IMG/VR virus record: IMGVR_UViG_3300033066_000386
Span: 1-64,000 of that record
Length of the DNA: 64,000 bases
Direction: 5' to 3' (one strand)
DNA from: a virus
Taxonomy: Duplodnaviria > Caudoviricetes
Shown here: positions 1 through 63,423 of the stretch, piece after piece
How positions within the stretch are numbered: position 1 is the first letter of the stretch
How the letters are laid out: each line of letters opens with the position of its first letter
Program-made: the position numbers and the translations under genes
Notes under the pieces: model-generated
Seen by the model: the letters and a program-made list of their open reading frames with translations, nothing else
Database searches by the model: none
Told to the model about the DNA's origin: nothing

Positions 1-683
1 TTGCCCTTGCCGTGCTTCTCCTTGGCTTCCTCGATTTCATCGATGCCGGTGTCTTGCATGAGTGCCGTCATGTAGACGTGAGTCTGTAGGTCGAACTTCA
101 ATTGCCGCTGCATTTGCACCAAGTCGATCTTGGTTTTGGTCTTGTTCTCCTTGAGCTGGATATGCCCCTTGACCAAATCGACGCTATCGAATTTCCCCTT
201 GAGGTACACCACCCGGCCTGATGGGAGTTCGTAGGGAATGTGAAATACCCTCTCCTGCAAGATGGGTTCGCGTTTCACCACGTCTGGGTGCGCGGACCAA
301 TAGCGGACGTATTCTGGGAACTGAGTACAAACGATGCTGGCCCACTTGTGAATCTCGCCACGCTCTAGCGGAAAGCATCTATCCAGCTTGGTCACGTATT
401 CCGTTAGTCTACGTTCACCTAAAGACCCGTCATGGCATTCTTTTTCGGACCCGGCAAACGCTTCTTCCAAGACATGCCACATGTTGCCGAATTCAATCGC
501 GCGATTGAATCGCGGTATGGGCTGCCATCCTTCCACGAACTGGACCCTAAACCGTTCACGGCAGGATAGGAAATGGTTAATCATCCCCTGCGTGATGCCA
601 CCAAGTCTAGTCGAGTCTTCCGGCCCCTTCCATAGTGCTTCCGGCTCGGAGGAGGTTTTCAATCGCTGTGCTAGTGAAGGCAT
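1..683 (-). CDS. PD-(D/E)XK nuclease, Cas4/RecB-like exonuclease (3' end truncated by window edge)
   Basis: Manual translation from ATG at 683: MPSLAQRL...GITQGMINHFLSCRERF...FGNMWH...E...LKGKFDSVD...IQLKENKT...LQTHVY. It shows the PDDEXK_1-type E..D..ExK and QxxxY motifs. Absent from the ORF track because it runs off the edge. Confidence 0.75.
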   Translation of the reverse strand, partial: MPSLAQRLKTSSEPEALWKGPEDSTRLGGITQGMINHFLSCRERFRVQFVEGWQPIPRFNRAIEFGNMWHVLEEAFAGSEKECHDGSLGERRLTEYVTKLDRCFPLERGEIHKWASIVCTQFPEYVRYWSAHPDVVKREPILQERVFHIPYELPSGRVVYLKGKFDSVDLVKGHIQLKENKTKTKIDLVQMQRQLKFDLQTHVYMTALMQDTGIDEIEEAKEKHGKG

Positions 684-760
684 GTTGCCCGTCCTTTCGG
701 CTGAGGTGTCTACGTCTATTTTACCGTGTCTGACTACGTTACTCGCGCGAGTAGAACTGT

Positions 761-967
761 CTATCCGTCGCATTGTCTTTCAAATTTCACTTCCGCCAAC
801 ACCACTTTGAACTGCTTACTGGTACAAAATTCTTGTTTATTACGGACGTTGTACGACTCTACTTGGTCACGATATTCATCGAACGCCGTAGCATAGTCTT
901 CTGCCTGAGCAATCAAGCGGATGTCCTTGAACGGATACTTGCCGCAATCAATGACCATGTACATCAC
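761..967 (-). CDS. hypothetical protein
   Basis: 68-aa ORF whose start overlaps the stop of the upstream minus-strand gene. Confidence 0.55.
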   Translation of the reverse strand: MMYMVIDCGKYPFKDIRLIAQAEDYATAFDEYRDQVESYNVRNKQEFCTSKQFKVVLAEVKFERQCDG

Positions 968-1368
968 GCACTCCTGATATCTGGTTCCAATGCCGCTGCC
1001 TTCTCCAACGCTTCGATCATGGGCAGTGGGTTGCTCTCTTCGACGAATGCTCCGTAAGAAGATTCTTTAAAAGAACAATTCTCTTCATCATCGCACTTTT
1101 TCGACAACACTTTGAATAGAGGGCATGCTACACACTCGTCATTAATAAAGTGGTAGCACAAGGCGCAGGTAGAGTCGTCAATACTTAGCGAAGGGTAGTC
1201 CCCATCATTTTCTTCAATGAAGAAATCTCCTTGGGACAGTGCGTGCTTCTCTAGGTTCTCTTTCGTCAGCCCCCTCCACTTTCGTAGCGAGTGCTGCACG
1301 GCGTCCTCAACAGGAACCTCGTGGGCTGGGATCGGGTAAAACTCCGCTTTCCATGTCTCTAGGCTCAT
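964..1368 (-). CDS. hypothetical protein with CxxC pairs
   Basis: 134-aa ORF with 4-bp overlaps on both sides; CALC and CVAC motifs. Confidence 0.65.
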   Translation of the reverse strand: MSLETWKAEFYPIPAHEVPVEDAVQHSLRKWRGLTKENLEKHALSQGDFFIEENDGDYPSLSIDDSTCALCYHFINDECVACPLFKVLSKKCDDEENCSFKESSYGAFVEESNPLPMIEALEKAAALEPDIRSA

Positions 1369-1580
1369 GATTCACCCCTGAAATAGATTGTGAGGAACAG
1401 TCCTAACGCTATGACGAGAGCAGCCCCTACTGTGTACATCACGTTTCTAAGATTATCCCACCCTGAGGTAGACAGATTTTTGCTCTGATCATGAGCCGCA
1501 CAAACAAACGCACAGACAACGAGAAGAGCTGGCACGCACAGAATCGCCAATCCTACCCAGAACAAGTCAATCGTTATCAC
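1365..1580 (-). CDS. small membrane protein (2 TM)
   Basis: Two long hydrophobic stretches; 4-bp overlaps with neighbours. Confidence 0.65.
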   Translation of the reverse strand: MITIDLFWVGLAILCVPALLVVCAFVCAAHDQSKNLSTSGWDNLRNVMYTVGAALVIALGLFLTIYFRGES

Positions 1581-2152
1581 GTTCCACCTCCAATTTTGTA
1601 CAGGGCGTTTTGAAGTACTGCTACCACCTTTTTTACCATCAATGGACGATTGGGAACCGGGGTTTGTAGGATCGCACTGGGGTGAGCGATGTGGACGATT
1701 TCATGGGCTTCGCTAGCCATATCCACGGATAGGTGCAGCCACTCCTTCGAGAGCGAACCCACGCACACGATGAGCTTGGGCCTGCACATCTCCACCATCT
1801 CTTTTACCCGTGGCGAGCATTCCTTGATTGCTTTCTTGGGTGGACGATGGTCCTCCGTTTCCTTGGCCTCTTTCGGGAAACACCCCACGATGTTCGTATA
1901 GCAACGGGTGTAATCGCATTCCATCGATTCCCATACCGATTCCACGATCTGGTCAAGCATCTTCCCAGCCGGACCCACGAGGGGCTTGCCTAGTAGGTTC
2001 TCGGATTTACCAGGGGCTTCCGCGACGAATAGCACATCACAAGGGATTTCTCCTCGCGCGAGTACAACTCTGTTTCTATGCTCGGCTAGGGGGCAGGCTT
2101 GGCAGTTGGACCACTTGGCTACGTGGGCCTTCCATGTGTCATTGAGGCTCAC
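1577..2152 (-). CDS. uracil-DNA glycosylase, family 4 (Fe-S)
   Basis: CQACPLAEHRNRVVLARG..DVLFVAEAPGKSENLLGKPLVGPAGKML...YTNIVGCFP...C...HPS motifs. Start moved to GTG at 2152, which gives a GTGA overlap with the upstream stop. Confidence 0.88.
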   Translation of the reverse strand: MSLNDTWKAHVAKWSNCQACPLAEHRNRVVLARGEIPCDVLFVAEAPGKSENLLGKPLVGPAGKMLDQIVESVWESMECDYTRCYTNIVGCFPKEAKETEDHRPPKKAIKECSPRVKEMVEMCRPKLIVCVGSLSKEWLHLSVDMASEAHEIVHIAHPSAILQTPVPNRPLMVKKVVAVLQNALYKIGGGT

Positions 2153-3459: not shown

Positions 3460-3681
3460 TTTCCACCTCCGTTTGTAGTCGCGCGAGTAGAATTGAGCAA
3501 TTCGTTTCCCATTTTGCATTCCTTTCCGTAAGTCGTTATTGTGCAATGGTTTGAGTTGGCATCCGTTTTAAGGCCCCTAGCGTGCGTTTCTAGGCACTCC
3601 AAGGTCAAGGCGTCCGATACCCCTACTTGCCCTCTCCGAATGCCTGGGGAGTGGCAAAATAGGGGGTAGAATGTGTGTTTT

Positions 3682-4125
3682 CTAGGTCAAGTTAGCGGCA
3701 GTGTCTTCGTCGTCCTGTCGTTGATTGGACTTGGTTTGTGCGTCGTTTTTCAACGTCCACAAGCCTCTTGAGATTCTACTAAACATGTCTTTTCTTCGGA
3801 ACAAGCAAGCGTAAACCGTATCGGCCAACAGGTGTATGCTTTTGTTTTTCGTCTTGTAACCACCCTCAGCTAAAATCTTGGCTATCTCCAAGGCTTTCAT
3901 TGGCCGATTTTGTTCCTTGAGAATTTCAATGGCGGCGTCCTGAATGTTGTGGAATATTTTGAATCGGTGGCACACCTCTGGGTCAGAGTTTTGTGGAGGC
4001 AGACTGCTTCTTAGATAGGCTATTAGCCTGCGTAAATTTTCGGTTTCAGCCTCGGCGGCAGACAGGTCTATCTCCGCTTGCTTTAGAATGCTGGCCTTAG
4101 TTTCGGCATCCATTTTCATCACCAT
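3682..4125 (-). CDS. coiled-coil plus winged-helix (HARE-HTH-like) DNA-binding protein
   Basis: N-terminal heptad helix, then AIEILKEQNRPMKALEIAKIL...VYACL...FSRISRGLWTL; visibly AT-richer than its neighbours. Confidence 0.6.
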   Translation of the reverse strand: MVMKMDAETKASILKQAEIDLSAAEAETENLRRLIAYLRSSLPPQNSDPEVCHRFKIFHNIQDAAIEILKEQNRPMKALEIAKILAEGGYKTKNKSIHLLADTVYACLFRRKDMFSRISRGLWTLKNDAQTKSNQRQDDEDTAANLT

Positions 4126-4152
4126 GTAAAGTCGCGCGAATCGTGTAATCGT

Positions 4153-6486
4153 TTAGACGACGTAGCAAAGCTCCTCAATGGCTCTGGTTATCATCACGTA
4201 CCGCAGGTTGTTGTTTTGCTCACGCTCCCAGTCCGCTTGCTTTTTGCGTTGGAAGCGTAGGGATATGGGGTCGAGAATAAATACCCGGCGTGCCTCAAGC
4301 CCCTTGGCCTTGTGACCGCTGGAGAATCGTACCCCCGGACTCTTGCGATCATCCGTGAATACCGAGTCGATCTTGGTGAGGATTTGCGTCGTGTTGGTCA
4401 CGCCGTCGGAGAAGGCAAGGATGCAGTCAGCCTTGTCTTGTAGACCGACGATGCGATTTTCGTTGGGGTGTTTTTTCGCTTGCTCCTTCTCAATCTCGGC
4501 ATGCAGCCAATCATCAAGCTTGCCCACGAACTCCGCTATCGGCATGGGCTTGTCGCCGCCATCGTATTCCTTGCCTGCCAACTTGCGGATGAGAGAGCTA
4601 AGCCCCTGCCCCACGTCTCGACCCTGAATGTTAGCTTTGATGCCACGCTTCAGGAATTTGAAGCATTGGGATACAAGCGGGGCATTGTGGCGGCATAGGA
4701 CCATATCACCGGCCTTGACCAATGGCCCGTAGGTTTTCTCCCACGGCAATTCTTCGAGTCCGTCAATGGTCTTTTGCAGCGTGTACAAAGCTTCGGTGAT
4801 GACGCCTTCGGGGTTGCTCTCGTGGGCCTCAAACGCTGGCACGTAGGCTTGAGCCTCTTTGACGATGGCCTTGCCGCACCTCCGAGTCACGGTTAGGGGG
4901 ATGACTTGTAATCCGCGCGGAGAGTTGCCCAACCGTTCATGTAGACTTTCCATTGATTTCGAGTCGCTGCCCGCAAAACTGTAAATGCTTTGCTTTTTGT
5001 CGCCCACAAAAATTAGACGCTTGCCGGAGCGTAGGGCTAGCTCTTGCTGGACCTTACTCAAATCCTGACACTCATCGACAAGCAACATGTCATATTGCTG
5101 CATCGGCAGGTCCAACGCTACCGGCAGCCAGACCATATCGTTGAAGTCGATGAGGCTATCCCTACTAACGTCCTTGCACCGTTCGATGACCTGTGGGATG
5201 AGGTCGAGAATCCGCTCCCTACTGCCGTTCACGTCGATGTCGTAGTATTCGATCAAGTCGTTTAGACTCGCGCGAGTAGAAATGCCTTCTTCATCCGTCT
5301 TGGGCAGCCCCATGCAAATCAAATTCATCTTGGCCAGGGCTACCAGCGTCTCCGTGGTGCGGACCAATGCAGATAGCTTGGGGTCCTTACGTACCGCTCG
5401 GCTATCGACCCCAAGGATATCGCATAGGAAGTTATTCACCCTCCACTTGCCACGATCCCCGGCGTCTACCCGTGGGAATGACTTTCGGATCGCGCGGAAC
5501 CCCAGCGAGTGCATGGTCAGGGCCTCCACCCCTTGTGGCACTCTAGATTGCAATTCGGTAGCGATGGCTTTGTTGAACGCGCACATGCCAACCGTTTTGG
5601 CAACTCCCCTGCTCAAAGCCATCGAATCCCACACTTGACGCTGTTGAGGAGAGGGAGTGAGTTTGCTTTCCCCGCCCATGACGTAATGCAGCCCCTCGAT
5701 CAGTGTGGTAGATTTTCCCACGCCCGCGAACGCTTCCACGATGACGTGGGGGGCGTTGTCTTCCTTCGTGGCTAGGCGTGATGCCAGCCCTGATTTAGAG
5801 GACGTTGGCGAGGATGTAACCGATGAAGGCGAGAGCGATTCCACCGATGGAACGGGGAAAGGGCGGCTTTGCTCACCCTCCGATTTCAACGCTTGCTTGA
5901 TTTCCTTTTCTTCCACCTGCTCGCAGATGGCAACCCGATGACCTTCCCGCAGCAACTTGTGCAGGTAGGTTTCGAGTTGGTGGTAGGGGAACCCCGACAT
6001 AGACAATTCCGCGCGGTTCGTTACCGTCAAGCCGAGAACCTTGCCTAGAATCTTGGCGTCTTCGTTGTAGGCTTCATAGAAGTCGCCCATGCGGAATAAG
6101 CAAATCATTTCTGGATGCTTAGCCTTCGCCTCTTCCCATTGCTTGAAGACGTTGGACTTGCTGAACGAGGTGTCAATCACCACGTCAGAGGGCTTTACGC
6201 TTTCTGTTGAGGGTTCGGAAGATGTGGATGGAGCGACAATAGAGGCAGGTTCCTTCTCCGTCGCAATCGCAGTGACCGTAGGGGTAGGGTTTGGGCAATT
6301 CTCACCCTCCAGCGAACGGAACTTTGCCGCCGACTTGAATACCGTCTTGCGATTGGTGGTTAGGTTGGTGACGTGGTAGCGTGTGCCGCTGGAGGTGTCG
6401 TCTATTGCATCGACTCGAACGGTGGTGAGCTTGTTGTTGACTTTGGCTTGATACGTGCCGCCGACTTGGATTTGATCTGCTTCCAT
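4153..6486 (-). CDS. SF1A (UvrD/Rep-like) helicase with N-terminal SH3/Tudor-like and MutS domain I modules
   Basis: MutS-I: KHPEMICLFRMGDFYEAY..GFPYHQLETYL..GHRVAICEQ. Helicase motifs: AFAGVGKST, AFNKAIA, VDECQD, VGDKKQSIYSFAG, TRRC, HKAKGLE, NLRYVMITRA. Confidence 0.88.
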   Translation of the reverse strand: MEADQIQVGGTYQAKVNNKLTTVRVDAIDDTSSGTRYHVTNLTTNRKTVFKSAAKFRSLEGENCPNPTPTVTAIATEKEPASIVAPSTSSEPSTESVKPSDVVIDTSFSKSNVFKQWEEAKAKHPEMICLFRMGDFYEAYNEDAKILGKVLGLTVTNRAELSMSGFPYHQLETYLHKLLREGHRVAICEQVEEKEIKQALKSEGEQSRPFPVPSVESLSPSSVTSSPTSSKSGLASRLATKEDNAPHVIVEAFAGVGKSTTLIEGLHYVMGGESKLTPSPQQRQVWDSMALSRGVAKTVGMCAFNKAIATELQSRVPQGVEALTMHSLGFRAIRKSFPRVDAGDRGKWRVNNFLCDILGVDSRAVRKDPKLSALVRTTETLVALAKMNLICMGLPKTDEEGISTRASLNDLIEYYDIDVNGSRERILDLIPQVIERCKDVSRDSLIDFNDMVWLPVALDLPMQQYDMLLVDECQDLSKVQQELALRSGKRLIFVGDKKQSIYSFAGSDSKSMESLHERLGNSPRGLQVIPLTVTRRCGKAIVKEAQAYVPAFEAHESNPEGVITEALYTLQKTIDGLEELPWEKTYGPLVKAGDMVLCRHNAPLVSQCFKFLKRGIKANIQGRDVGQGLSSLIRKLAGKEYDGGDKPMPIAEFVGKLDDWLHAEIEKEQAKKHPNENRIVGLQDKADCILAFSDGVTNTTQILTKIDSVFTDDRKSPGVRFSSGHKAKGLEARRVFILDPISLRFQRKKQADWEREQNNNLRYVMITRAIEELCYVV

Positions 6487-6708: not shown

Positions 6709-6714
6709 TCGATG

Positions 6715-8259
6715 CTACTTTTTCCGTTCCTTGACCTTGATGGAATTGCTCACCTCATCCTGCGTGGCCAAGCCGATGCGTAGGCCCTTTTCCTTGAGGC
6801 GTGCGAAGTTCTCGTCGAGGTCTTTGATCGGGAACCGGAGCAGCATCATGCCGTTGTGCTTGTCCACCTCCGTGACCAATCCAAGTTCCAGGGCTGCGGT
6901 CTGGGCTTGGTCCTGCCAGATGGTAACGCGGTTGGGTCCGACATAGAACAAGAGCAGGTCGGGGTGTGCGGCTTGTAGCGTGGCCACGTCTTCCCGTGCC
7001 TGATCCGCCTTGCTCTTTTTCTTTTCCGGTTTTTCCTCGGTCGTATCGGGTTCGTCTTGGCTGTCCTCTTTCTTGCCGCCTAGGTCGATTCCACCAACTT
7101 TGGGGAACTCGATCAGCTTCTTGTGGCCGTCTTCATCGGGGTCGCTGTACTTGAGTTCCAAGCTCTCCACCTTGATTTTCTTACCGGCCTTGAAGTCATT
7201 CCATGCCTTGAGGACGATGCCGATCTTCTCGTTGGAGCTTGGGTTGCCCTCCCCGTTCTCGTTGTAGAGTCCGGCTAGCGCGGTTCGCACTCCATCCATC
7301 ACTTCGCTGCCGCCAGCCATCAAAGTCCAAAACTCTTGAGCTTTGTCCCAGTTGTCCATGTTGAGGGTTGATTCCTTGCGTCCCTTGGCTTCGTATTTCT
7401 TAGGGTCACTATCGCTAGCTGCCATGAGGTAAAGGAACGCGCTGGCGTAACCCGCTGGCATGCGTGCCGAGTTGATGGCCCAGTTAGAACTGTATTCGTC
7501 CCAAATGTGCTTGACCGCGTGCTTGAGCTTGGGATGACGTTCCACGAAGTCGCACGCTTCGGAGTTGGACAAGTGCGGGGTCAATTCATCGTCCTTGGCT
7601 CCGGTTCGTCCCCACAGCAAGCGAATGGCGTTGCCCATCATCTTGGTTAATACCTTGCGATCCGCTGAGGAAGCTTTGGCGAATAGTGTGGTGTCGGTGC
7701 AGAACACGTCGCCGAGATCGCGCGGACGAACATTGTCGAGCGTGCGGGTAACGTGGGGGTGTTCACCGATGCCGTAGACGAGTAGGCATTCCATCGTCGG
7801 CTCGGTCTCCCATTTCTTCTTCCAGTGATCGGCTTGCGGTCCTGCCCACGTCTCCGCAGCCTTGCACAAGGCAATCAATCGATGCTGGCCGGAGAGAACT
7901 TGCCCAGTCGTGCTGATGTTGACGGTTTCCCCGTTAATCGTCATGCCCTCACCGTTGCGGCTATCGGCCCAATTGCGGTTGAGGATGTCTTGGGCTAACT
8001 GTGCGGACCAGCTATCAGTATAGGGCCGATTGTGCTGGTTATTCTCGCATCGGACCTTCTTGCCGGTCAAGGTGGTCAACCCATCCGGTACGGATTCGGT
8101 AACGCCTTCCCCCTCTTGCCAGCCCAGCAACTCCTTGGCTTGGGCCACGGTGAGGGCGTTGTCGCCTAGACGTAGCTCGGTTCTCAATTCTGGGTGGATG
8201 ACGGCCCGGTCGCTCTTGCTAGCGTTGGACTTCTCGGTGGTCTTGTTTCGTGGCGGCAT
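6715..8259 (-). CDS. ParB-like N-terminal domain protein with C-terminal degenerate MutS-I-like domain
   Basis: HNRPY...INGETV...VLSGQHRLIA resembles ParB/Srx-like phage proteins. The C-terminus AAHPDLLLFYVG...RFP...LKEKGLRIGLA aligns by eye to MutS-I. Start placed at ATG 8259 (GGAG upstream). Confidence 0.6.
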   Translation of the reverse strand: MPPRNKTTEKSNASKSDRAVIHPELRTELRLGDNALTVAQAKELLGWQEGEGVTESVPDGLTTLTGKKVRCENNQHNRPYTDSWSAQLAQDILNRNWADSRNGEGMTINGETVNISTTGQVLSGQHRLIALCKAAETWAGPQADHWKKKWETEPTMECLLVYGIGEHPHVTRTLDNVRPRDLGDVFCTDTTLFAKASSADRKVLTKMMGNAIRLLWGRTGAKDDELTPHLSNSEACDFVERHPKLKHAVKHIWDEYSSNWAINSARMPAGYASAFLYLMAASDSDPKKYEAKGRKESTLNMDNWDKAQEFWTLMAGGSEVMDGVRTALAGLYNENGEGNPSSNEKIGIVLKAWNDFKAGKKIKVESLELKYSDPDEDGHKKLIEFPKVGGIDLGGKKEDSQDEPDTTEEKPEKKKSKADQAREDVATLQAAHPDLLLFYVGPNRVTIWQDQAQTAALELGLVTEVDKHNGMMLLRFPIKDLDENFARLKEKGLRIGLATQDEVSNSIKVKERKK

Positions 8260-8303
8260 AACTGATCTTGCTCCTAATTGGTTTTTACTCGCGCGAGTAG
8301 AAC

Positions 8304-8537
8304 TCACGAAAATAGTGATTCATTGGTGACGGTTACAGGCTTCTTCGGGCGATTCAGGATGGTCGGGTCGTCCACGATGGACTGCTTGCAATGGACGCAC
8401 ACGGGAATCTCCTTGGCTATTTCCGTGTGCGCGGTGGGCTTGCCGAAGATGTCCTTACGGTATCGCATGATCGTATGCTTGATCTGCAATTGCCCGTGCG
8501 GCACATGTCTTCGGCAAAGTTGGCATCGATAAGACAC
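8304..8537 (-). CDS. small Zn-finger protein
   Basis: CQLC...CVHC. Confidence 0.6.
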   Translation of the reverse strand: MSYRCQLCRRHVPHGQLQIKHTIMRYRKDIFGKPTAHTEIAKEIPVCVHCKQSIVDDPTILNRPKKPVTVTNESLFS

Positions 8538-8837: not shown

Positions 8838-8895
8838 GGTAACGTCCTTTCTACTTAGGGTGGGGGGGCGAAAATACGTTTCTAGTCGCGCGAGT

Positions 8896-9408
8896 TCAAC
8901 TCAACTCGGCAATTTCCTTGTGTTCGTCTTCGGTCAGGTCACGCTCGCCATTCAGGCGGATCAGCTCGGCCAAGCGGTCTTGATTCACGGCCTTGATGCA
9001 CTCCGGGCCAAATCCTCGCTCGATTGATTCCGGCGTGGTCAGTTTCTTGCCGCAACGTCCGCACTTGCCTTCGTGATGCACGGCAAACCCCTTGCTCTCG
9101 AATGCGTCGTGGTCATTGCAGGCGATGCGGGCCATGACGCGATTGAATAGTCGTACCGGATAGGACGAGGCCGATAGCTGGCTCTTGGCGGTTGGCATGA
9201 CCTGGAACGTGTAGGTGTCCAGCTTGCCCACATAGCTATAGTCGCTGGTGTTGTCCGCACCCGTGAGCAGCTTCACGAAGTAGGCCGGTTTGGGATAGCG
9301 TTCGTTCGGTTCGGTTGCGGTAATCCGATAGGTGCGATGACCTTGATCGGGCGTCTGGATGGTGAAGGTTGCATCGCCTGCGAGAAGAAATTGCGAAGTG
9401 AGTTTCAT
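8896..9408 (-). CDS. DUF6011-like Zn-finger protein
   Basis: C-terminal GKCGRCGKKLTTPESIERGFGPEC. Confidence 0.75.
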   Translation of the reverse strand: MKLTSQFLLAGDATFTIQTPDQGHRTYRITATEPNERYPKPAYFVKLLTGADNTSDYSYVGKLDTYTFQVMPTAKSQLSASSYPVRLFNRVMARIACNDHDAFESKGFAVHHEGKCGRCGKKLTTPESIERGFGPECIKAVNQDRLAELIRLNGERDLTEDEHKEIAELS

Positions 9409-10090: not shown

Positions 10091-10294
10091 TTAATGGTCC
10101 TCTCGGTCGAAAATCTCCTCGTAGCTGCCGCACCAGTCCGTGGGCAAGGTCAAGGGCCAAACTCCATCGCCGCATGAATCGCGCGAAGGAGATAGGACAC
10201 GGCATAGACCCTTGTCTGGTTCCGTATGGTACAGCAGCTTCCAGAACTTGCAGCTTTCGCATTGCTCCTTCATGGGCCGCTCCTTTACGCACAA
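10091..10294 (-). CDS. small Cys-rich protein
   Basis: CESCKFW...GLCR...WP...DWCGSY. Confidence 0.6.
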   Translation of the reverse strand: MCVKERPMKEQCESCKFWKLLYHTEPDKGLCRVLSPSRDSCGDGVWPLTLPTDWCGSYEEIFDREDH

Positions 10295-11569: not shown

Positions 11570-11912
11570 GTCGAAAGGGTTCTTGGCTAGACGCCCTCAC
11601 CTCCTTCTTTGAGAGAGACTTGATAATGTCGTCTCTACTCGCGCGACTAGAAATGGTTGCAACCCAATAGACGTTTCCATCCTTCTCCGGCCTGGATACC
11701 ACCGTACACTCCTTGGGATAGCCCTCCAAGGTTTTTGAGAAGGTGACGATGGCACAATCGATGGTTTGACCATCCTTGCCTACGTAAACCACTAAGGGCT
11801 TGGCGGTCCTTACACTCTCCGCCATTGCCTCTTGGTAGGAAAGCTTCATCGGTGGCACTTGAGGTGGGGGAGGAACCCCTTGGCTTAACATCAAGGCTAG
11901 TAAGAAAATCAT
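11529..11912 (-). CDS. putative exported protein
   Basis: N-terminal hydrophobic signal-like segment followed by a Pro-rich linker. Confidence 0.6.
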   Translation of the reverse strand: MIFLLALMLSQGVPPPPQVPPMKLSYQEAMAESVRTAKPLVVYVGKDGQTIDCAIVTFSKTLEGYPKECTVVSRPEKDGNVYWVATISSRASRDDIIKSLSKKEVRASSQEPFRLVQQTRSVQNCST

Positions 11913-16665: not shown

Positions 16666-18659
16666 TGTACGATGCTCACAACTCCACCAGTAGTTTCACC
16701 ACAGGACGTTAAATCGACGCCTGAGAAGATCGCGCTAAACGGCTCACATACTGACTGCAAAGAAGTATACGTCGTTCCATTAACATCGAGAATCCAATCC
16801 GTTCCATCACAAGAAAGATTCCAGTCTGCCATGTCGCATGTACCAAACATGCCCGTTCCAATCCATGTGCCGCTGCCACCATCGTATGTAAGTGTCGCCG
16901 TGTCTGTCACTGCTCCGACGATAACAGTCATCGTCAGTGTATCTGGCAACGGTTTCGGGCAACATGCTTTCGTTGGATATCCAGCAGGCTCATCCAAGCA
17001 ATACCAATACTTGGGAATATCAGGGCAGCAATTTGGGACGCACTTAATTCCGTATGGCTCTGTGCTGTCGAATACCAAAACGTATCCGTCTTTGCACGCT
17101 GGGAATGTCACCCATACCCCAAGGATAGGGTCCCATACGATGATCCCGAATCCATCCCCTGGCGGAAGACATTTGCACGGTCCCGCGTAGTTCACTTGGA
17201 GCGTATGAACCCCACCACCCGGATCGGCAATCGTTACTGATGCGTCCGGAGATGTTAAGGTCTGTGCTGCCGTCGTATCAGCGTTGATAGAGGTGACTGC
17301 TGACACCGTGAATGTGATTGTGCTTCCCGATGCAGATATCGCAATCTCTCCACCAGATTGGGCAAGCGTAAAGTTCGGAGTACCTGTAGCTGTGCCGCTC
17401 GGAGTTGCTATTTGCAGTCTCGGCACATTGATCGTGTTGATGCCGTCGCCGGTTGTTAGAACCCAATAGGTAGCATTTGGTGGAACGTTGTTCGTGCTTG
17501 CCAAGATGCAGCGATAGGTATTGCCACCACTAGTAACCAACCATCCAGGAAGGTAAGTCTGCGACGATGACCATGCTGCCGGAGTCGCACTGATGTTGAT
17601 ATCGGAACCAGAAACACCAAGTCCTATCGTCTGGCTAGCCGTCGTATCGTCATTGATCGACGTGATACCACTGACAGATGCCGGTATGTTGATAACATTG
17701 ATGCCGTTGTCGGTTATCTGTGCCCAGTAAGCTGTATTTGGAGGAACATTGTTCAGACTCGGAGTTATACAGTAGTAGTAGTTAGATAGGTATGAAACAA
17801 CCCATCCGATTTCATATTGCTGAGTGCTGCTCCACCCTGGCAATAACTCTGTAACGACTACCCATGTCCCAAGACTAGGTGGTGCGACATTGTAGTTCTC
17901 CAAGATGCAACGATACGTCACCAAACTCGATATAACAAAATCACCCTCCCGATACACTCTACCGCTTTTCCATTCCACAGGGGTCGTGGTTATGTTGAAG
18001 ACACTTCCGGTCCTATTGATCCCAACCGTTTGCCTTGGAGTCGTGTTGCTGTTGATGGATTGAACTGTATCGGGAATGTTGATGACATTCAGACCTTGAC
18101 CAGTAACGTCGATCCATTCAGCACTAGGAGGCTCGTTGATGCCGCCTACAGAAAGATTCTCCGTGATGCAGCGATATATGAGGCTGGTATGTTCAACAAT
18201 CTCGCCAACCCGATAAACGATCCCCGCTGCCCATGCAACCGCAGTGGTTGCTATGTTGATGTCAACTCCTTCTTTACCCAAGCCGATTGTCTGGTTCTGC
18301 TCTCCGTTGTCGTTGATGGTGAGGATGCCGGAACCGGTGTTACACACCACTACATACACATCGCCATAGGTTCCGTCGAAAAAAGCTCGTTGGATGGTTG
18401 CCACGGTCGGGACTTCAGCGATTACATCGTTGGCATCGAATACCGGACCTAACGTTTCCGTACCGCTTCTTCCACCTGGCCTATCGATCCATGCAACGGG
18501 GTTGACGGTATCGTAATCCAACTCGGTCCATGCGTAGAGGCCCGTAGAGGAATTAACCGATGTTAGTCTTGCCCAAAATGGTCGGTTCATGCCCATTACC
18601 GACTGATCGTCGGATAGGTAGAGTCCTCCAAATACTTCGGCAATCGGTTTGGGGTCCAT
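16662..18659 (-). CDS. tail fibre / receptor-binding protein with four CBM5/12-like repeats
   Basis: Four W...Y..G..V......Y.C repeats separated by SIN..TT..QT.G spacers; Cys-rich C-terminal module. Confidence 0.72.
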   Translation of the reverse strand: MDPKPIAEVFGGLYLSDDQSVMGMNRPFWARLTSVNSSTGLYAWTELDYDTVNPVAWIDRPGGRSGTETLGPVFDANDVIAEVPTVATIQRAFFDGTYGDVYVVVCNTGSGILTINDNGEQNQTIGLGKEGVDINIATTAVAWAAGIVYRVGEIVEHTSLIYRCITENLSVGGINEPPSAEWIDVTGQGLNVINIPDTVQSINSNTTPRQTVGINRTGSVFNITTTPVEWKSGRVYREGDFVISSLVTYRCILENYNVAPPSLGTWVVVTELLPGWSSTQQYEIGWVVSYLSNYYYCITPSLNNVPPNTAYWAQITDNGINVINIPASVSGITSINDDTTASQTIGLGVSGSDINISATPAAWSSSQTYLPGWLVTSGGNTYRCILASTNNVPPNATYWVLTTGDGINTINVPRLQIATPSGTATGTPNFTLAQSGGEIAISASGSTITFTVSAVTSINADTTAAQTLTSPDASVTIADPGGGVHTLQVNYAGPCKCLPPGDGFGIIVWDPILGVWVTFPACKDGYVLVFDSTEPYGIKCVPNCCPDIPKYWYCLDEPAGYPTKACCPKPLPDTLTMTVIVGAVTDTATLTYDGGSGTWIGTGMFGTCDMADWNLSCDGTDWILDVNGTTYTSLQSVCEPFSAIFSGVDLTSCGETTGGVVSIVQ

Positions 18660-18684
18660 ATTTACTCGCGCGACTAGAAACGCA

Positions 18685-25561: not shown

Positions 25562-25600
25562 ATGGTTTCCACTCGCGCGAGTAACGTAGTCACATATGCA

Positions 25601-40551: not shown

Positions 40552-40552
40552 C

Positions 40553-41344: not shown

Positions 41345-41473
41345 GCAACTTCTCCCCTAGTGCGGAACAGAGGATGATTTCAAGAGCAAATAGCAAATTG
41401 CCGGGTAGGTCCGAGGCATGCTCTTTTGCATAACCCATATAGACTCGCGCGACTAGATATACCTGATTCATGA

Positions 41474-45819: not shown

Positions 45820-45846
45820 TCTCCAAACTGAGTTGTACTCGCGCGA

Positions 45847-46071
45847 CTAGATACCGTCGAAGGCTAAAGCATCCTCTTCCGTCAAGTCCTCGTTGGTCCA
45901 ATCCGGTGCGGTGGGTTGCTCGGCAAAGGCTTTATCGGCCTTGTCTAGCGCCTCTTGGCGGCTATGGGTCTCGTCGAGTGCCACGGCGAGCAACGCCATA
46001 TACCAATCGGCATTGTCCCCGGCCTTCTGGACCCTAGCGCACACCTCTCGTGCATATTCTTTGCTTGTCAT
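45847..46071 (-). CDS. hypothetical protein
   Basis: 74-aa ORF with 4-bp overlap. Confidence 0.55.
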   Translation of the reverse strand: MTSKEYAREVCARVQKAGDNADWYMALLAVALDETHSRQEALDKADKAFAEQPTAPDWTNEDLTEEDALAFDGI

Positions 46072-51416: not shown

Positions 51417-51546
51417 ATCTTCTATCCTTTTGGGAAGTCAATTTCCGAATTATTGTAACTACCCACTCGGCAAAGGGATAGCCCACTTTTTGGCCATGTA
51501 TAGTCGCGCGACTAAAAACTATTTTCAACTTTTTCTAAAATCCCCC

Positions 51547-52203: not shown

Positions 52204-52709
52204 CAACCGAAACCAAACATTCCGCGATGTTCTACTTCGACCTTGCCGTTGGCCTGATGCGTCAGCATGGGCTGGAATCGTGGGCCTTCGTGTTCGACAA
52301 TGCCAAGCGTAGGGCAGGGGTATGCCGGTATCGATGCAAGGTCATCTCGCTATCCCGCCACTACGTCCGGCTCAATGCCGACAACTACGAGGACATACGC
52401 GACACCATCCTCCACGAGATTGCCCATGCCCTTGCCGGTCACAAAGCCGGGCATGGTCCGGCATGGAAAGCGGTATGCCGTCGCATCGGGGCCAAACCGG
52501 AGCGATGCTACGATCCGAGCAAGGTAGTCATGCCCAAGGGTTCCTTGCAAGCCACTTGCGGTGGATGCCTCAAGGTGTTCACCCGTCACAAGGCTGTACG
52601 CAAGGGTTCGTGGCGGTATTGCGTCAAGTGCGGCAAGGACAAGGGTCGATTGACCTTCGCCAAACGTGTAGAGTCGCGCGAGTACAAACCCTCATCACTG
52701 TTTCAATGA
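52200..52709 (+). CDS. SprT-like zinc metalloprotease domain protein
   Basis: AKRRAGVC...ISLS...DTILHEIAHAL...GHGPAWKAVCRRIGAKP; C-terminal CxxC pairs. Confidence 0.85.
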   Translation: MTTETKHSAMFYFDLAVGLMRQHGLESWAFVFDNAKRRAGVCRYRCKVISLSRHYVRLNADNYEDIRDTILHEIAHALAGHKAGHGPAWKAVCRRIGAKPERCYDPSKVVMPKGSLQATCGGCLKVFTRHKAVRKGSWRYCVKCGKDKGRLTFAKRVESREYKPSSLFQ

Positions 52710-53843: not shown

Positions 53844-55477
53844 TACACTTCCTTCGGCAATAGGATTTGTTGGTCGTGCTTGCATTCGATTTCGATGACG
53901 GCGGGGTCGGTATATTTAAGTACTCGTTCAAGTTCAGATATGTTTTCTCTGGTTAAGCGACTGTGTATGACAATTCCCATTGCTTCGGCTACGTCTGAAA
54001 TGTCTGGTATGGCCACATCATCGCCGCTACCTATCCTCCTGCCCTCACAGTATCGGTCTTGGGTATTACGAATGGACGCATAGCCACCGTTGCTGATGAC
54101 GATGATCTTGACGTTGAGTTCTAGTCGCGCGAGTACGCTTAGCTCCTGCACGTTGGTCATGAAGCTACCATCCCCGATAACGGCAACCACCGGCACATTC
54201 GGATTGGCCAGGGCTGCTCCGATGGACGCTGGCAATGCCCACCCCATTTGGGCCAATGATCCAGGGCAGATGAATCTTCGGTTGCCCATCATCTGCATGA
54301 CCTGAGGAATGGCGTAGTAGGGCTGCCCGGCATCGTAAAGGATAATGGCGTCTTGGGATATCTCGTCGTTCAAAGCGGATAAGGCTTCGTACAGGTCTAG
54401 CGGTCCATCTTCGTTGTCTACGATATACTCTTGGCTATGTTGGTGGTAGGCGTCTCCACATGCCCTATGCCAATCGCTTCCCTCATGGGTAAATTCCAGC
54501 TTGAGCTTAACCAGCTTTCTAAGGAACTCGCCCACGTCGCACTCGAACTTCAAGCCGCCGTGATCCACCTTGTCCAGTACGGCGCGGTCCGGGTCCACAT
54601 GGATGATCGTGGCGTTCTTGGGCAGGTACTCGCCATCCCATCCGATGGTTTGGTTGTGTAGGCTACAGCCCATGACGAGGACCACATCGGCATTCTTGAG
54701 CATCCAGTTCGCTGCGGTATGACCCTTCACTCCTGGGTGGCCATAGCTGTATCGGATGGCATCTTTGGCGAATTGGGTGGTGATGATCGGGATGGTGCAG
54801 GACTCGTCTAGCTGGCGTGCCGCCTCAATCGCTCCAGAACAGCGTATGCCGTGTCCAAATAGGATCAACGGGCGTCTAGCCTCCTTGAGCAGTTTGGATG
54901 CCTGCAAGGGCCATTCTGGATTGATTTTAACCCGTTCTAGGGCCGGATTTAGTGGCTCTTTAGGAATCGGCAGCTTGTCTTGGCTGATTTCGCTGCTTTG
55001 AAAGTCGAGGGGGACTTCCAAATAGACCGGCCCCGGCCTTCCCGACACGCATTCCATCCATGAGCCTTCGATGCAGATAATGCCGTGATCCTTGGTGAAG
55101 GCCGAGACGATGGGGAACGTATCTACTTCAAGAAACCCCGTTTGTCTCAATCTAGTTCCATTATTGCAATCCTTGACCTTGCTTTGACCCACGATGTAGA
55201 TGACGGGGATGGAGTCTTGGTACGCGCTGACGATTCCCGTAATGAGGTTGGGTCCACCTGGTCCACCCGTGGCAAGGCATAGGCTGGGTCTGCCCGTTAT
55301 CCGAGCGTAGGCATCGGCAGCATAGGCTGCGGCTTGCTCATGGTGGAAGCAGGTGTACCCCATGCCGCTCTTCTTAACCGCGTCCATCAAGTACATCATC
55401 TGCCCACCCGATACCAGGAAGGCGTGGTCAATGCCCTGGGCTTGCAGGAATTGGATGAGGTAGTCAGCTACGATCAT
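53843..55477 (-). CDS. ThDP-dependent enzyme, acetolactate-synthase-like (YerE-like candidate)
   Basis: HHEQAAAYAADAYAR..TGGPGGPNLITG (catalytic Glu); GDGSFMTN...ISNGGY (ThDP motif); AAGGAG RBS before ATG 55477. Confidence 0.88.
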   Translation of the reverse strand: MIVADYLIQFLQAQGIDHAFLVSGGQMMYLMDAVKKSGMGYTCFHHEQAAAYAADAYARITGRPSLCLATGGPGGPNLITGIVSAYQDSIPVIYIVGQSKVKDCNNGTRLRQTGFLEVDTFPIVSAFTKDHGIICIEGSWMECVSGRPGPVYLEVPLDFQSSEISQDKLPIPKEPLNPALERVKINPEWPLQASKLLKEARRPLILFGHGIRCSGAIEAARQLDESCTIPIITTQFAKDAIRYSYGHPGVKGHTAANWMLKNADVVLVMGCSLHNQTIGWDGEYLPKNATIIHVDPDRAVLDKVDHGGLKFECDVGEFLRKLVKLKLEFTHEGSDWHRACGDAYHQHSQEYIVDNEDGPLDLYEALSALNDEISQDAIILYDAGQPYYAIPQVMQMMGNRRFICPGSLAQMGWALPASIGAALANPNVPVVAVIGDGSFMTNVQELSVLARLELNVKIIVISNGGYASIRNTQDRYCEGRRIGSGDDVAIPDISDVAEAMGIVIHSRLTRENISELERVLKYTDPAVIEIECKHDQQILLPKEV

Positions 55478-56275: not shown

Positions 56276-57133
56276 CTACGTCTTCCTGAGTCCTTCGAGT
56301 ACGTAATAGTTCATGGTCCGCTTGAGGGCATCTTCGAGCGGAATGGTGGGCTCGTAATTACCAAGAATGAAGTCCTTTTCTGGTTCATCGTCTCCGAGAA
56401 CCACGTTGTCCGTTAGTAGTCGCGCGACCCTGACTAGGCTAACAGCATCGAGACTTCCTAGTTCACACAACAGATTCTCTACAGTTGCTCGCAACAATTC
56501 AATTACCATATCGCAAGCGTGGAGATAACCCCTAACGGTGTTGGGAGAGCGTACCAAGACCGGCTCACCGGCAAGGGCTTGCTTGATGAAGTTGCCCACC
56601 GCGAATCGCTCTAGGTCCATCATGGGGCCGACGAAGCTGTAACCACGAACAATGCTGGCTTCCAATCCGTCTTCTTCACACGCTCGGTGCAACATCGTTT
56701 CACATAGACGCTTGGTCTCGGCTATCACCCTGCGCGAATCGTTCCACCCATAATCCATGTGGACCGCTTGGCTGGAGGTGAATAACAGCTTCTTTACGCC
56801 TTGCACCTTGCAGAATTCCAAGACACGTTCCATGCCCACAATGTTGTTGGCGATGCTCTTGTGGTCGTAGGCAAAGTGCATGACGTAATCGTGGCCGTCA
56901 GCATGGTCCAAGCCCAATAGCGGGTCCAAGTTCTGAATTCGGTAAGCGTCGTGGTAGCTCCAGAACGTGGTGATGCCTAGCAATTCATCCGCGCGATCCA
57001 ACGTCATCGTCATCCACCTACCAAAGAACCCAGCGGCTCCCGTGATGAAGATGCGTTTGCCGTCAAGCTGCCTCAGATACGGCTCCGCATGCTTGACGAT
57101 GTGGTCCAAGTCGGCTTGTAGTTGTGGGTTCAT
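56276..57133 (-). CDS. NAD-dependent epimerase/dehydratase (extended SDR)
   Basis: IFITGAAGFFGRW Rossmann motif; LLFTSS; R.FSFVGP-like; TVRGYLH. The YxxxK position reads IAETK. Confidence 0.8.
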   Translation of the reverse strand: MNPQLQADLDHIVKHAEPYLRQLDGKRIFITGAAGFFGRWMTMTLDRADELLGITTFWSYHDAYRIQNLDPLLGLDHADGHDYVMHFAYDHKSIANNIVGMERVLEFCKVQGVKKLLFTSSQAVHMDYGWNDSRRVIAETKRLCETMLHRACEEDGLEASIVRGYSFVGPMMDLERFAVGNFIKQALAGEPVLVRSPNTVRGYLHACDMVIELLRATVENLLCELGSLDAVSLVRVARLLTDNVVLGDDEPEKDFILGNYEPTIPLEDALKRTMNYYVLEGLRKT

Positions 57134-59008: not shown

Positions 59009-59296
59009 TCATGTCATCACTCCGTGACCAGGGTTCTTCAAATCCCCTCCATCCAATGCCAGCCCCTCTTTGGCCAGCTTGGATAGACGCTTGATGGCAT
59101 ATTCCATTTGTAGGGCTTCCGACTTGCTCTCGCATTTTAGCATCCATACCAGCGATACGGGCAGTCTTGATCGGGTGTATTTGGCCCCCTTGCCGCTATT
59201 GTGTTTCTTCTCGCGCGAGTACACATCATTGGACACGCCGCAATAGAGGCTGCCATCGGAGCATCGCAAGATGTAAGTGTGCCACGTTAGTACCAT
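59009..59296 (-). CDS. GIY-YIG nuclease family protein
   Basis: WHTYILRCSDGSLYCGVSND...HNSGKGAKYTRSRLPV...ALQMEYAIK. Confidence 0.9.
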   Translation of the reverse strand: MVLTWHTYILRCSDGSLYCGVSNDVYSREKKHNSGKGAKYTRSRLPVSLVWMLKCESKSEALQMEYAIKRLSKLAKEGLALDGGDLKNPGHGVMT

Positions 59297-61522: not shown

Positions 61523-61830
61523 TTTGATAACTCCGCGTTGAGCATATCGGTCAGGTCGGAAAGGAATAGGTTCATGCAGACGGATTTACAGGGGTCTTTT
61601 TCGGACAAGCTGTAATGATTAAAGACAACCATTTCGAGCGGTCTTAGATTAAAGTATCTTTGAGACACCTCCCTAATCATCTCCACCGTTAGTAGTCGCT
61701 TGGGCTTGTCATCCCGTTTGTACTCGTGCGACTCCAACTCGCTTAGCCGATCATTCACTTCGGCCAACGTATCGTAGCCAACCTCCCGTGTCATATCCCC
61801 TAGCGTCTCACGAACGTAATACCTACTCAT
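61519..61830 (-). CDS. hypothetical protein
   Basis: Overlaps the rfbH start by 4 bp; start approximate (MSRYYV). Confidence 0.45.
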   Translation of the reverse strand: MSRYYVRETLGDMTREVGYDTLAEVNDRLSELESHEYKRDDKPKRLLTVEMIREVSQRYFNLRPLEMVVFNHYSLSEKDPCKSVCMNLFLSDLTDMLNAELSK

Positions 61831-62197
61831 GGCGTTGCTCCTTCGGCCACCCCGACCACGACTCTCCGTGCATGGGATGGAACATTGATAAAGCATCCAG
61901 TATTGAGTTTATTTTTTGAGACAGTTCCCATGACCACGAACTACTACCAACGTTCCTAGTTAGGTCAGCTATTAACTGAATGGCTTCCTGATGCTTCTCT
62001 AAGATACAATCACGGTTAGCCTCAATTAAGCCAGCCATAGGATCGTACCTAGCGGATAACTCCTTTTCCAATTCATCAATCACTGCTGCCCTACGAAGCA
62101 ACTGCCTGCTTAAGATGCGTAGATCATCATCAGGATCACAATTAGGCTCGTTGAGTAATTTGTTGGCCAGCACTATAGAGTCAGATTTCTCGCTCAC
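61823..62197 (-). CDS. hypothetical protein
   Basis: GTG start overlapping the rfbG stop; helical. Confidence 0.5.
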   Translation of the reverse strand: MSEKSDSIVLANKLLNEPNCDPDDDLRILSRQLLRRAAVIDELEKELSARYDPMAGLIEANRDCILEKHQEAIQLIADLTRNVGSSSWSWELSQKINSILDALSMFHPMHGESWSGWPKEQRHE

Positions 62198-63147
62198 GGC
62201 TTGTTCTCCCCAAAGTATTTGCGATACCACTTAACCGTCTCTTTCAACCCATCCGCTAGCGTCCAATTGGGAACCCAGCCCAGCTTGGCACGGGCTTTTT
62301 GAGAGGAGAGATGCTGGGCCTGAATCTCGTTCGTGGCCTCGTTGCGGATATCGATTTTACAATACCTAGCGTCGGACATGAACAAGCCATGCATCTCAGC
62401 TAGAACGTTGACCACCATTTCTTTAGCGTCAATCGGCTCATCGTTGCTGAAGTTGAATGCCTCACCGTTCTGCACCATGCCGAATGCCAGGCCCTCCGCT
62501 AAAGCAATGTAGGCGTTGACGGCATCCTCTACGTAGAAGTAGTCGCGGATTGGTGTACCATCGCTACGAATAACGGGATTCTGACCTTGGAGTACACTAC
62601 GAATGGTCCCTGGTACGATACGGTTCCAGTTGAGGTCCCCTCCCCCGTAGATATTACCCATGCGTGCAATGGCAATGGGGAGGTCATAGGTTTTGGCGTA
62701 GCACTGGGAGATGAGGTCGGCACAGGCTTTGGAGCAATCATAGGGGTAGAGTCCTCGTAAGGGCGTGTTCTCGGTGTAGGGCAGGATGGGGGATTCGCCA
62801 TACGCCTTGTCGGACGACACGGTAATTATCTGCTCAACTTTTCCGTGTCTTCGGCAGGCGTCGAGAACGTTCACCGTTCCCATTACGTTGGTGTCCATTG
62901 TCGATTTTGGATTTTTGATTGCCTCACCTACCTGCGACTGCGCGGCCAAATGAAAGACTGTCTTGCTAATTTCGGTCAAGCGGTAAACGGCTTGGAGGAT
63001 CGTTACGTCCATCTCTTCGTGGAGGCACAAATCAAGTCTCCAAACGAATGCCCCCATCTCCTCCAGCTTCCTTACCAGCCATGATCCAACGAATCCGCTG
63101 GAGCCGGTGACGAGGACGGATCGATCTTTCCAGAATTCGGGTTTCAT
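62194..63147 (-). CDS. rfbG: CDP-glucose 4,6-dehydratase-like (RfbG/DdhB)
   Basis: FWKDRSVLVTGSSGFVGSWL, VFHLAAQ, SSDKAY, PYDCSK, NIYGGGDLNWNRIVP. Confidence 0.85.
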   Translation of the reverse strand: MKPEFWKDRSVLVTGSSGFVGSWLVRKLEEMGAFVWRLDLCLHEEMDVTILQAVYRLTEISKTVFHLAAQSQVGEAIKNPKSTMDTNVMGTVNVLDACRRHGKVEQIITVSSDKAYGESPILPYTENTPLRGLYPYDCSKACADLISQCYAKTYDLPIAIARMGNIYGGGDLNWNRIVPGTIRSVLQGQNPVIRSDGTPIRDYFYVEDAVNAYIALAEGLAFGMVQNGEAFNFSNDEPIDAKEMVVNVLAEMHGLFMSDARYCKIDIRNEATNEIQAQHLSSQKARAKLGWVPNWTLADGLKETVKWYRKYFGENKP

Positions 63148-63423
63148 TGCTTTGCTCCAATCGAGTTAGGCTCGCGCGAGTAAATACGGGTAATTACCCC
63201 TCCACTTTCTTCATCGGGCAAGATGGATGATGCCCGCAAGCGCCTGGGTCATTGCTGGCCCCGCAATCACACTTCGGGGAGTTGTCGTCTACCGGCTGTA
63301 ACGCTTCTCTGGCAAGCTTCAAAGCATCGTAGAGAACGTCGTGGTCATTGCTTGTCAGCATGTAGCCGATGGTCCAATCTAGCTGAACCAACCTCTCACA
63401 AGCTTGCTGACACAAATCCAAGT

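Follow-up and report, generated by a model that had tools for sequence, protein, structure and literature searches.

A dispersed array of 26-bp symmetric sites around TCGCGCGA in an uncultured phage genome: candidate docking sites for a two-fold symmetric DNA-binding protein

We examined a 64-kb window, the first part of the 89,757-bp IMG/VR phage record IMGVR_UViG_3300033066_000386 (labelled G000 here), and focused on an 8-bp palindrome, TCGCGCGA, that recurs along this genome. The phage is uncultured. Called genes make up 90.8% of G000, leaving 9.2% non-coding, nearly all of them lie on the minus strand, and the G+C content is 52.5%. Protein families were assigned by Pfam scans over about 130 open reading frames (ORFs) of G000. 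The head and packaging genes encode an HK97-type capsid protein, a second capsid-like protein, a MuF-like protein, a portal and a split large terminase. The genes for DNA metabolism encode a family A polymerase, a primase, RecD-like and UvrD-like helicases, uracil-DNA glycosylase (UDG), and PD-(D/E)XK, Endonuclease VII and GIY-YIG proteins. Three N6_N4 methyltransferases and one Mom-family protein are encoded for DNA modification, and further genes specify CsrA and a nucleotide-sugar pathway. The scans gave zero family matches to RNA polymerase, sigma factor, integrase or ParB_N, and large ORFs of unassigned function remain.

A first-pass annotation had counted at least 27 copies of TCGCGCGA in the window. 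Our exact count was 27, at the same positions, and G000 as a whole carries 39. Dinucleotide-preserving shuffles of the window gave a mean of 1.32 copies with a maximum of 4, an order-3 Markov model predicted 0.57 copies for G000, and TCGCGCGA is the most frequent 8-mer of that genome. When synonymous codons were shuffled within called genes, 1.67 ± 1.18 coding copies (maximum 6) were obtained, compared with the 24 observed, which are split 10/7/7 among the three reading frames. The enrichment therefore survives dinucleotide, Markov and codon shuffles, and we conclude that the array is real and strongly selected. Of 179 papers with TCGCGCGA in their full text, the 20 ranked highest use it only in primers or in unrelated ways.

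Alignment of the G000 copies placed the core within a 26-bp symmetric site, SRTTTnTAS-TCGCGCGA-STAnAAAYS, in which conservation reaches +/-9. The core holds approximately 15.6 bits of information and each arm approximately 6-7.5 bits, and at no position do the two arms differ beyond noise. A T at -5, which had been reported for 23 of the 27 window copies, was recovered in the same number upon recounting. Good flanks were found at 34 of the 39 cores, and sites with good arms and a one-base change in the core number only three in G000, at 31933, 61724 and 68858. We refer to sites with a TCGCGCGA-type core and TAS/TTTn arms as class I (Table 1). The 20-bp palindrome at 491-510 is indeed perfect, as had been noted, and its arms are atypical.

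The arms mirror each other in consensus and do not pair site by site. Complementary bases occur at +/-1 in 17 of 39 sites, compared with 16.2 expected from independent draws, and at +/-4 in 3 of 39 compared with 10.2 expected (P = 0.003, uncorrected). At 22 of the 39 sites, the perfect palindrome is restricted to the 8-bp core. No T-run lies downstream of the sites, and a Rfam scan found no family match except a tRNA. Since covariation between the halves is lacking, a hairpin is excluded; the same lack, together with the depleted complementarity at +/-4, argues against a cruciform. Symmetry without complementarity of the variable positions indicates instead that two half-sites are read independently on duplex DNA, not on a folded strand. 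Two side observations concern the arms: perfectly symmetric sites look avoided at +/-4, and a sub-family of sites carries a longer one-sided variant arm, GACTMCGTTAC-TCGCGCGA (window 743 and 25573; G000 76318 and 64435).

The sites are placed unevenly with respect to genes, and the gene-junction positions that had been listed earlier agree with those we recomputed. Sixteen of the 39 cores are non-coding, and of the 13 gaps between genes that measure 25-60 nt, 7 contain a core. Fourteen sites start 1-22 nt past a stop codon, and seven lie 19-29 nt upstream of a start codon preceded by a Shine-Dalgarno (SD) sequence, where about one is expected. In all, about 20 sites precede a start codon by 6-62 nt, read along the coding strand; about 7 cores are within the first or last 60 nt of genes, and about 14-16 are deep inside genes. 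A terminator scan placed a strong hairpin next to just one site, and we detected no global periodicity of site positions in G000 (P = 0.6). Distances between neighbouring class I sites of G000 cluster at 1.1-1.5 kb (12 of 38 inside a 1.3-fold window, P = 0.002), and any two of them are at least 246 bp apart (P = 0.014). The 5.3-kb portal gene, on the minus strand at window 46068-51416, contains zero class I sites; its 1782-aa product carries a NUDIX domain and an insert that resembles a LAGLIDADG intein.

Intragenic copies fall within ungapped conserved blocks of orthologous proteins, which shows that they arose by substitution rather than insertion and rules out an inserted or mobile element as their origin. 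For example, G000 reads TTT CTA GTC GCG CGA GTA where two relatives read TTC CTT ACG TCT CGT ATT and TTC CTT GTC TCC AGA ATC. The first-pass annotation had suggested that selection acts on the DNA rather than on the protein, and had looked to synonymous changes in orthologues as a sign of it. Both points hold: intragenic sites differ from their orthologues by codon choice and conservative replacements, and the use of three reading frames, the excess over codon shuffling and the orthologues with similar peptides encoded by other codons together indicate selection on DNA. By these alignments, the intragenic sites arose through synonymous and conservative changes.

Homologues of a 514-aa protein encoded in the window led us to a relative, R62, an 89.8-kb contig of which 41 kb (46% of the record) was compared. 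R62 encodes a version of that protein with 62% identity and is syntenic with G000 in gene order. R62 contains 22 CGCGCG hexamers in 41 kb, compared with 6-8 from Markov models and 9.9 ± 3.1 from codon shuffling. The arms of these sites are symmetric as well, AWY-CGCGCG-RWT; only 4 of the 22 are TCGCGCGA, and 19 of the 22 are intragenic by called genes. One of the R62 sites is orthologous to the G000 site at 497, the position of which is thus conserved. A further contig, L194, has approximately 80% nucleotide identity to R62 and carries 6 such sites in 4.5 kb, 4 of them at R62 positions; the 30 core columns show 3 changes compared with about 6 expected, which is only suggestive of core conservation. 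G000 itself has 31 further CGCGCG with R62-like arms, forming a second, weaker class, WWY-CGCGCG-RWW (class II), often AATC-CGCGCG-GATT, with examples at window 4914, 6010, 58078 and 58781. Class II is common to R62 and L194. By this comparison the sites read as two layers, a YCGCGCGR centre with A/T arms common to two sister lineages and, on top of it, a stronger lineage-specific TAS-T..A-STA class.

Beyond these lineages the array was not found. G001-G003, related through a capsid protein of 58-63% identity, have zero copies of TCGCGCGA and no analogous motif; the hexamers enriched in them are AGCGCT, GGCGCC and GAATTC, with flanks that are not conserved. One of them, G002 (IMGVR_UViG_3300039002_000011), shows a 13:1 strand bias of GACCCGGA in 44 kb, with 2.1 expected and again no flank conservation. 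The more distant members of the 514-aa family, L187, L190, L191 and L195, lack an array. When IMG/VR and collections of metagenomes and genomes were scanned for the exact pattern, contig L185 was the only further sequence with the array. Most of the 120 genome-collection matches, and most of the 42 metagenome matches, resemble accidental or coding occurrences in high-GC sequence, with the peptide YSREY of one conserved gene accounting for many. L185 is a 9.6-kb contig, 92-97% identical to window 18.4-25.9 kb, with all five sites kept; core conservation between genomes this similar is not significant, since the divergence is too low.

L185 sits in a metagenome bin labelled Saccharibacteria. Elsewhere in that bin the 14-bp form of the site does not occur, and each of five Planctomycetota genomes of 3.8-9.2 Mb has 1-2 copies of it. 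The possibility that the motif is simply a common host repeat, which had been raised earlier, is thereby ruled out. Two contigs, L192 and L193, carry relatives of the HARE-HTH protein described below beside Planctomycetota-like genes (DUF1559/SBP_bac_10 and extracytoplasmic function sigma/FecR), and the label Fimbriiglobus is attached to one of the homologues of the 514-aa protein. These labels and neighbours hint at a Planctomycetota-like host, which conflicts with the Saccharibacteria bin.

Two genes had been put forward as encoding the protein that reads the sites. The first, at 3682-4125, had been called a winged helix-turn-helix gene, and its product indeed matches the HARE-HTH winged helix above the Pfam cutoff (28.2 bits compared with 25.9); a match to WH_Rok, at 20.6 bits, is below the cutoff of 27.6. 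A homodimer model of this protein scored 0.34, compared with 0.00 for the best control, on a scale whose mark was reached by 21 of 30 one-chain-pair structures and by 0 of 23 single-chain structures. The interface is formed by antiparallel residues 7-43, and the runs agreed in at least 54% of contacts, with a partner pLDDT (predicted local distance difference test) of at least 69. The modelling supports self-binding as a symmetric homodimer. The single-sequence AlphaFold model is all-helical, of low confidence, and too poor for fold comparison. The only links between the protein and the sites are a core directly upstream of its gene, its predicted symmetry and its restriction to the lineage with class I arms. 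We regard it as the best candidate reader in the genome, and only as a lead. Other DNA-binding candidates are two TacA-like ribbon-helix-helix (RHH) proteins, encoded on the plus strand at 52719-52937 and 40351-40551, and one 173-aa protein with multiple helix-turn-helix (HTH) motifs, encoded at 57845-58366.

The second gene, at 6715-8259, encodes the 514-aa protein and had been described as ParB-like. This description found no support: Pfam gave no ParB domain even with the threshold relaxed to E ≤ 1, the protein has no relative in the PDB, and its family of more than 100 members, many on 40-90-kb contigs, is common in 65-90-kb phages without the motif. A search of IMG/VR for loci related to the HARE-HTH protein or the 514-aa protein found none. 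MutS domain I occurs in two G000 proteins, at the C-terminus of the 514-aa protein and N-terminal to the UvrD-type part of the helicase encoded at 4153-6486 on the minus strand; the R62 helicase is without the MutS_I part. The locus between the 514-aa and helicase genes holds a tRNA in G000, a 91-aa gene in R62 and, in the motif-free relative L187, a genuine ParB_N gene (L187:11548-12174). The G000 tRNA is a tRNA-Ile with anticodon TAT (window 6637-6709, minus strand), and it is the only tRNA of that genome.

Taken together, we think there is about an even chance that the 26-bp sites are duplex-DNA docking sites for a two-fold symmetric, sequence-specific candidate protein encoded by the phage, with transcription control as a likely consequence. 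The earlier proposal of dispersed, protein-bound sites would stand in this form, as a dimer on duplex DNA fits symmetric half-sites without covariation, and would lose its ParB-like binder. Each half-site (5'-SRTTTnTAS-TCGC) would be read independently by one subunit. A first layer, the YCGCGCGR centre with A/T-rich arms, would be common to this lineage and one relative, and a second layer, the lineage-specific refinement with TAS-T..A-STA and TTTn arms, would make up the dominant class of 34-39 sites. The sites would occupy tolerant sequence, namely permissive stretches of genes and short spacers between cistrons, where they typically lie 1-22 nt past a stop codon and 6-60 nt ahead of the following start, and the array would co-evolve with its reader. 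Occupancy at cistron junctions and within genes could then act as an operator or roadblock in genome-wide transcription control, in the manner of the stoperators of Cluster A phages or of KorB at its OB sites.

The closest parallel comes from the Cluster O mycobacteriophages, which carry a 17-bp dyad, TGTTCGGNNNCCGAACA, in 34 invariant copies in about 70 kb together with three one-mismatch sites (Cresawn et al. 2015, PMC4351075). That repeat consists of two 7-bp arms around a 3-bp spacer, is about one-third intergenic, one-third near 5' ends and one-third intragenic, and has no copies in the host or in other phages; its authors inferred a dimeric DNA-binding protein, with function unknown (PMC4351075). 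G000 is similar in copy number (39 in 90 kb), in an invariant symmetric part with three extra one-mismatch sites, in the mixture of intergenic, 5'-proximal and intragenic positions, in the absence of such an array from more distant relatives and candidate hosts, and in belonging to a phage that is not obviously temperate. It differs in having an unrelated sequence of 26 bp with a G+C centre and degenerate A/T arms, two coexisting site classes, an unrelated phage lineage and an uncultured host. By these comparisons the G000 array is an analogue of the Cluster O repeat and not a homologue. Dispersed dyad repeats of phages have thus been known since 2015, and the Cluster O array is still without an established reader or function. 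The present case is informative since it combines a strict 8-bp core and graded arms with a short, testable list of candidate readers, and the two coexisting classes may record a specificity shift between sister lineages. Identification of the reader here could give a handle on the whole class, be it in transcription regulation, marking of self DNA or genome organisation.

Stoperators of Cluster A phages (bound by L5 gp71 and Bxb1 gp69) are 13 bp long, asymmetric and oriented with transcription, and are read by the monomeric immunity repressor of a temperate phage. They resemble the G000 sites in being tens of near-identical sites along the genome, mostly at gene junctions with some in genes, and in that site and reader diverge together between lineages. 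In contrast, the sites described here are symmetric, and neither an integrase nor an immunity repressor was found in the scans of G000 ORFs. KorB-OB (12 sites of TTTAGCSGCTAAA on plasmid RK2), ParB-parS and Noc-NBS are likewise palindromes scattered along the DNA, with A/T arms around a G+C centre, some near and some far from promoters, and each is read by a dimeric HTH protein. Unlike for KorB and ParB, no ParB_N or ParB-HTH protein and no ParA were detectable in G000. The consensus matches neither parS nor OB, in agreement with the earlier statement that the site is unlike parS.

Several observations weigh against the docking-site reading. At G000 86076, a core lies upstream of a strong terminator-like hairpin, not downstream. 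The syntenic stretch of R62 has no orthologue of the HARE-HTH gene, a word-based search of a protein collection with this protein returned the query alone, and those of its relatives from an exhaustive search that we looked up are in cellular, not phage, contexts. Among 19 mappable CGCGCG positions only 3 are common to G000 and R62. Such turnover of positions indicates that density counts at least as much as location, and together with the intragenic placement of 19 of the 22 R62 sites it means that gene-specific regulation is not required; a density-dependent genome mark fits equally well. The strict 8-bp centre and the R/Y degeneracy in R62 also resemble the recognition sequence of an enzyme.

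On this last point, it is possible, if unlikely, that the sites are recognised by a DNA enzyme of the phage, for instance a methyltransferase, a nickase or a restriction-like nuclease, that marks self DNA or introduces nicks or breaks for replication, recombination or packaging, with enrichment raising the density of the mark. The strictly invariant palindromic centre would suit such an enzyme, as would the form YCGCGCGR in R62, since R/Y degeneracy is typical of type II specificities. The three methyltransferases and the Mom-family, GIY-YIG, Endonuclease VII and PD-(D/E)XK proteins would supply candidates, and turnover of positions is what a density-type function predicts. However, conservation over 26 bp with degenerate A/T-rich arms exceeds that of usual enzyme sites, nicking both strands of the palindrome would break the genome, no encoded enzyme is linked to the site, and R62 also has three such methyltransferases, yet a different arm consensus.

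Less probable, we judge, is a phage-specific promoter at which either the RNA polymerase of the host, assisted by a dimeric activator from the phage, or an unrecognised phage polymerase would start upstream of many cistrons. The sites upstream of start codons on the coding strand would be accounted for, sigma-70-type matches are at about half the chance level in window 36000-55900 (8 compared with 15.5 ± 3.9 in shuffled sequence), and the right arm, TAnAAA, may loosely resemble a -10 element. Nevertheless, the site is symmetric despite near one-way transcription of the genome, the copies deep within genes and the nearly all intragenic sites of R62 are poorly placed for promoters, and the site at 86076 is ahead of a terminator-like hairpin. 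Unlike T7-like or N4-like promoters, the sites are symmetric and non-hairpin, and the RNA polymerase and sigma families went unmatched in the ORFs scanned, with the reservation that large unassigned ORFs remain.

Rok, a xenogeneic silencer of Bacillus subtilis, is a winged-helix protein that prefers the pentamers AACTA and TACTA, then ATCTA and TTCTA (PMC6212790). The HARE-HTH candidate is predicted to be organised in a similar way, with a helix for self-association at its N-terminus and the winged helix at its C-terminus, and the arms described here include TTCTA and TACTC. Rok differs in that it reads loosely defined A/T-rich DNA, compared with a 26-bp site with an invariant G+C core. Building on this likeness, a more speculative scheme, which we hold to be a long shot, is genome marking in two layers: a clade-wide (CG)3 bounded by Y and R would be read by a conserved factor or as a non-B structure, and one lineage would have added A/T arms recognised by a Rok-like HARE-HTH homodimer that it had newly gained from a nucleoid protein of the host, for self/host discrimination, silencing or organisation in a Planctomycetota-type host. 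An antiparallel helix pair of about 55 Å would space the winged helices about 16 bp apart, which would match the spacing of the TTCTA arms.

A DNA-structure element, in which (CG)3 flips to Z-DNA or the palindrome extrudes a cruciform and the structure is recognised by, for example, a MutS_I-domain protein or a winged helix of Z-alpha type, is very improbable. What the clade has in common is precisely CGCGCG, the classical Z-forming hexamer, between a Y and an R that end the purine-pyrimidine alternation at 6 bp, and a winged-helix protein and two MutS_I-domain proteins are encoded. Against this, 6 bp is short for a supercoil-driven B-Z transition. Pfam scans gave zero Z-alpha family matches, the base-specific arms (TAS, TTTn) favour sequence readout of B-form DNA, and arms that are not complementary disfavour a cruciform.

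An RNA-level hairpin serving processing, stability or translational control in polycistronic transcripts can hardly be credited: many sites are intercistronic and near Shine-Dalgarno sequences, as such an element would be, but the variable positions lack compensatory pairing and are depleted of it at +/-4, the 22 sites that pair over the core alone would form at most a 2-bp stem with a 4-nt loop, and neither a following T-run nor a Rfam family match was found. We give next to no credence to an artefact of composition or codon use, to a repeat common in the host or to a miniature mobile element, since only the high count itself speaks for them, given an enrichment that survives every shuffle, an extended site absent from the rest of the co-binned genome and nearly so from Planctomycetota, sites inside ungapped conserved blocks, an exact core with degenerate arms that is the reverse of copy-and-paste, and, unlike for repetitive extragenic palindrome (REP)/RAYT elements, no covariation, many intragenic copies and no Y1/RAYT transposase in the ORF scans.

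Table 1. Sites of the array and candidate reader genes in the window (sites are unstranded)
Feature	Position	Strand	Core	Context and remarks
Site	488..513		497-504	Within PD-(D/E)XK nuclease gene; atypical arms TTCAA..TTGAA; includes the 20-bp perfect palindrome
Class I	734..759		743-750	11 nt past upstream stop codon, 59 nt ahead of SD+ATG; one good arm only
Class I	2045..2070		2054-2061	Within UDG gene
Class I	3470..3495		3479-3486	19 nt upstream of SD+ATG of 127-aa gene
Candidate reader	3682..4125	-		147 aa; N-terminal helix, then HARE-HTH winged helix; predicted homodimer
Site	4123..4148		4132-4139	14 nt past helicase stop codon, 6-18 nt ahead of HARE-HTH start; poor flanks, total score -2.3
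Class I	5259..5284		5268-5275	Mid-gene, MutS_I-UvrD helicase
514-aa protein	6715..8259	-		Weak C-terminal MutS_I match
Class I	8280..8305		8289-8296	29 nt upstream of SD+ATG of 514-aa gene
Class I	8877..8902		8886-8893	3 nt past stop codon, 48 nt ahead of next start
Lone core			10179..10186	Within small ORF; arms not conserved, flank score -13.2
Class I	11630..11655		11639-11646	Within 127-aa gene; top flank score, 18.6
Class I	18657..18682		18666-18673	12 nt past stop codon, 6 nt ahead of ATG of 665-aa CBM_5_12 protein gene
Site	21721..21746		21730-21737	Within 198-aa gene; weak arms
Class I	22108..22133		22117-22124	Gene 3' end, 28 nt upstream of next start
Class I	25084..25109		25093-25100	Within 148-aa gene; synonymous and conservative changes; R62 CGCGCG at same position
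Class I	25564..25589		25573-25580	21 nt past stop codon, 11 nt ahead of ATG; one arm is variant GTAACGTAG
Class I	30241..30266		30250-30257	9 nt past stop codon
One-mismatch core ACGCGCGA			31933..31940	Good arms, flank score 14.2
Class I	33862..33887		33871-33878	Second capsid-like gene, ungapped conserved block (YPRATRVP)
Class I	36352..36377		36361-36368	3 nt past stop of 1087-aa gene, 83 nt ahead of major capsid start
Class I	41436..41461		41445-41452	22 nt past stop codon
Class I	42676..42701		42685-42692	Within MuF-like head morphogenesis gene
Class I	45830..45855		45839-45846	1 nt past stop codon, 25 nt ahead of SD+ATG of 807-aa gene
Class I	51495..51520		51504-51511	Divergent intergenic region between portal gene (-) and plus-strand gene cluster
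Class I	52665..52690		52674-52681	3' end of SprT-like gene (+), 37 nt upstream of TacA-like RHH gene
Class I	54116..54141		54125-54132	Within thiamine diphosphate (ThDP)-enzyme gene
Site	56411..56436		56420-56427	Within epimerase/short-chain dehydrogenase/reductase-like gene; one good arm only
Class I	59202..59227		59211-59218	Small gene 59009-59296; earlier GIY-YIG label unconfirmed for this gene
One-mismatch core TCGTGCGA			61724..61731	Good arms, flank score 14.6
Class I	63163..63188		63172-63179	24 nt upstream of SD+ATG of nucleotide-sugar epimerase gene

The remaining observations concern the gene content and the ends of the record. The large terminase is encoded by two genes approximately 3 kb apart, the ATPase (Terminase_6N) and the nuclease (Terminase_6C), located at L005:8012-9007 (G000 72012-73007) and L005:4107-4847 (G000 68107-68847). 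The CsrA homologue is kept in both G000 (89101-89295) and R62 (L186:18130-18339). The PD-(D/E)XK nuclease gene is divided between the two ends of the record, at window 3-773 and G000 89289-89750, and is undivided, with 373-385 aa, in the relatives L186 and L187. Because one gene is split across both ends, we conclude that the record is circularly permuted and does not begin at a true linear end.

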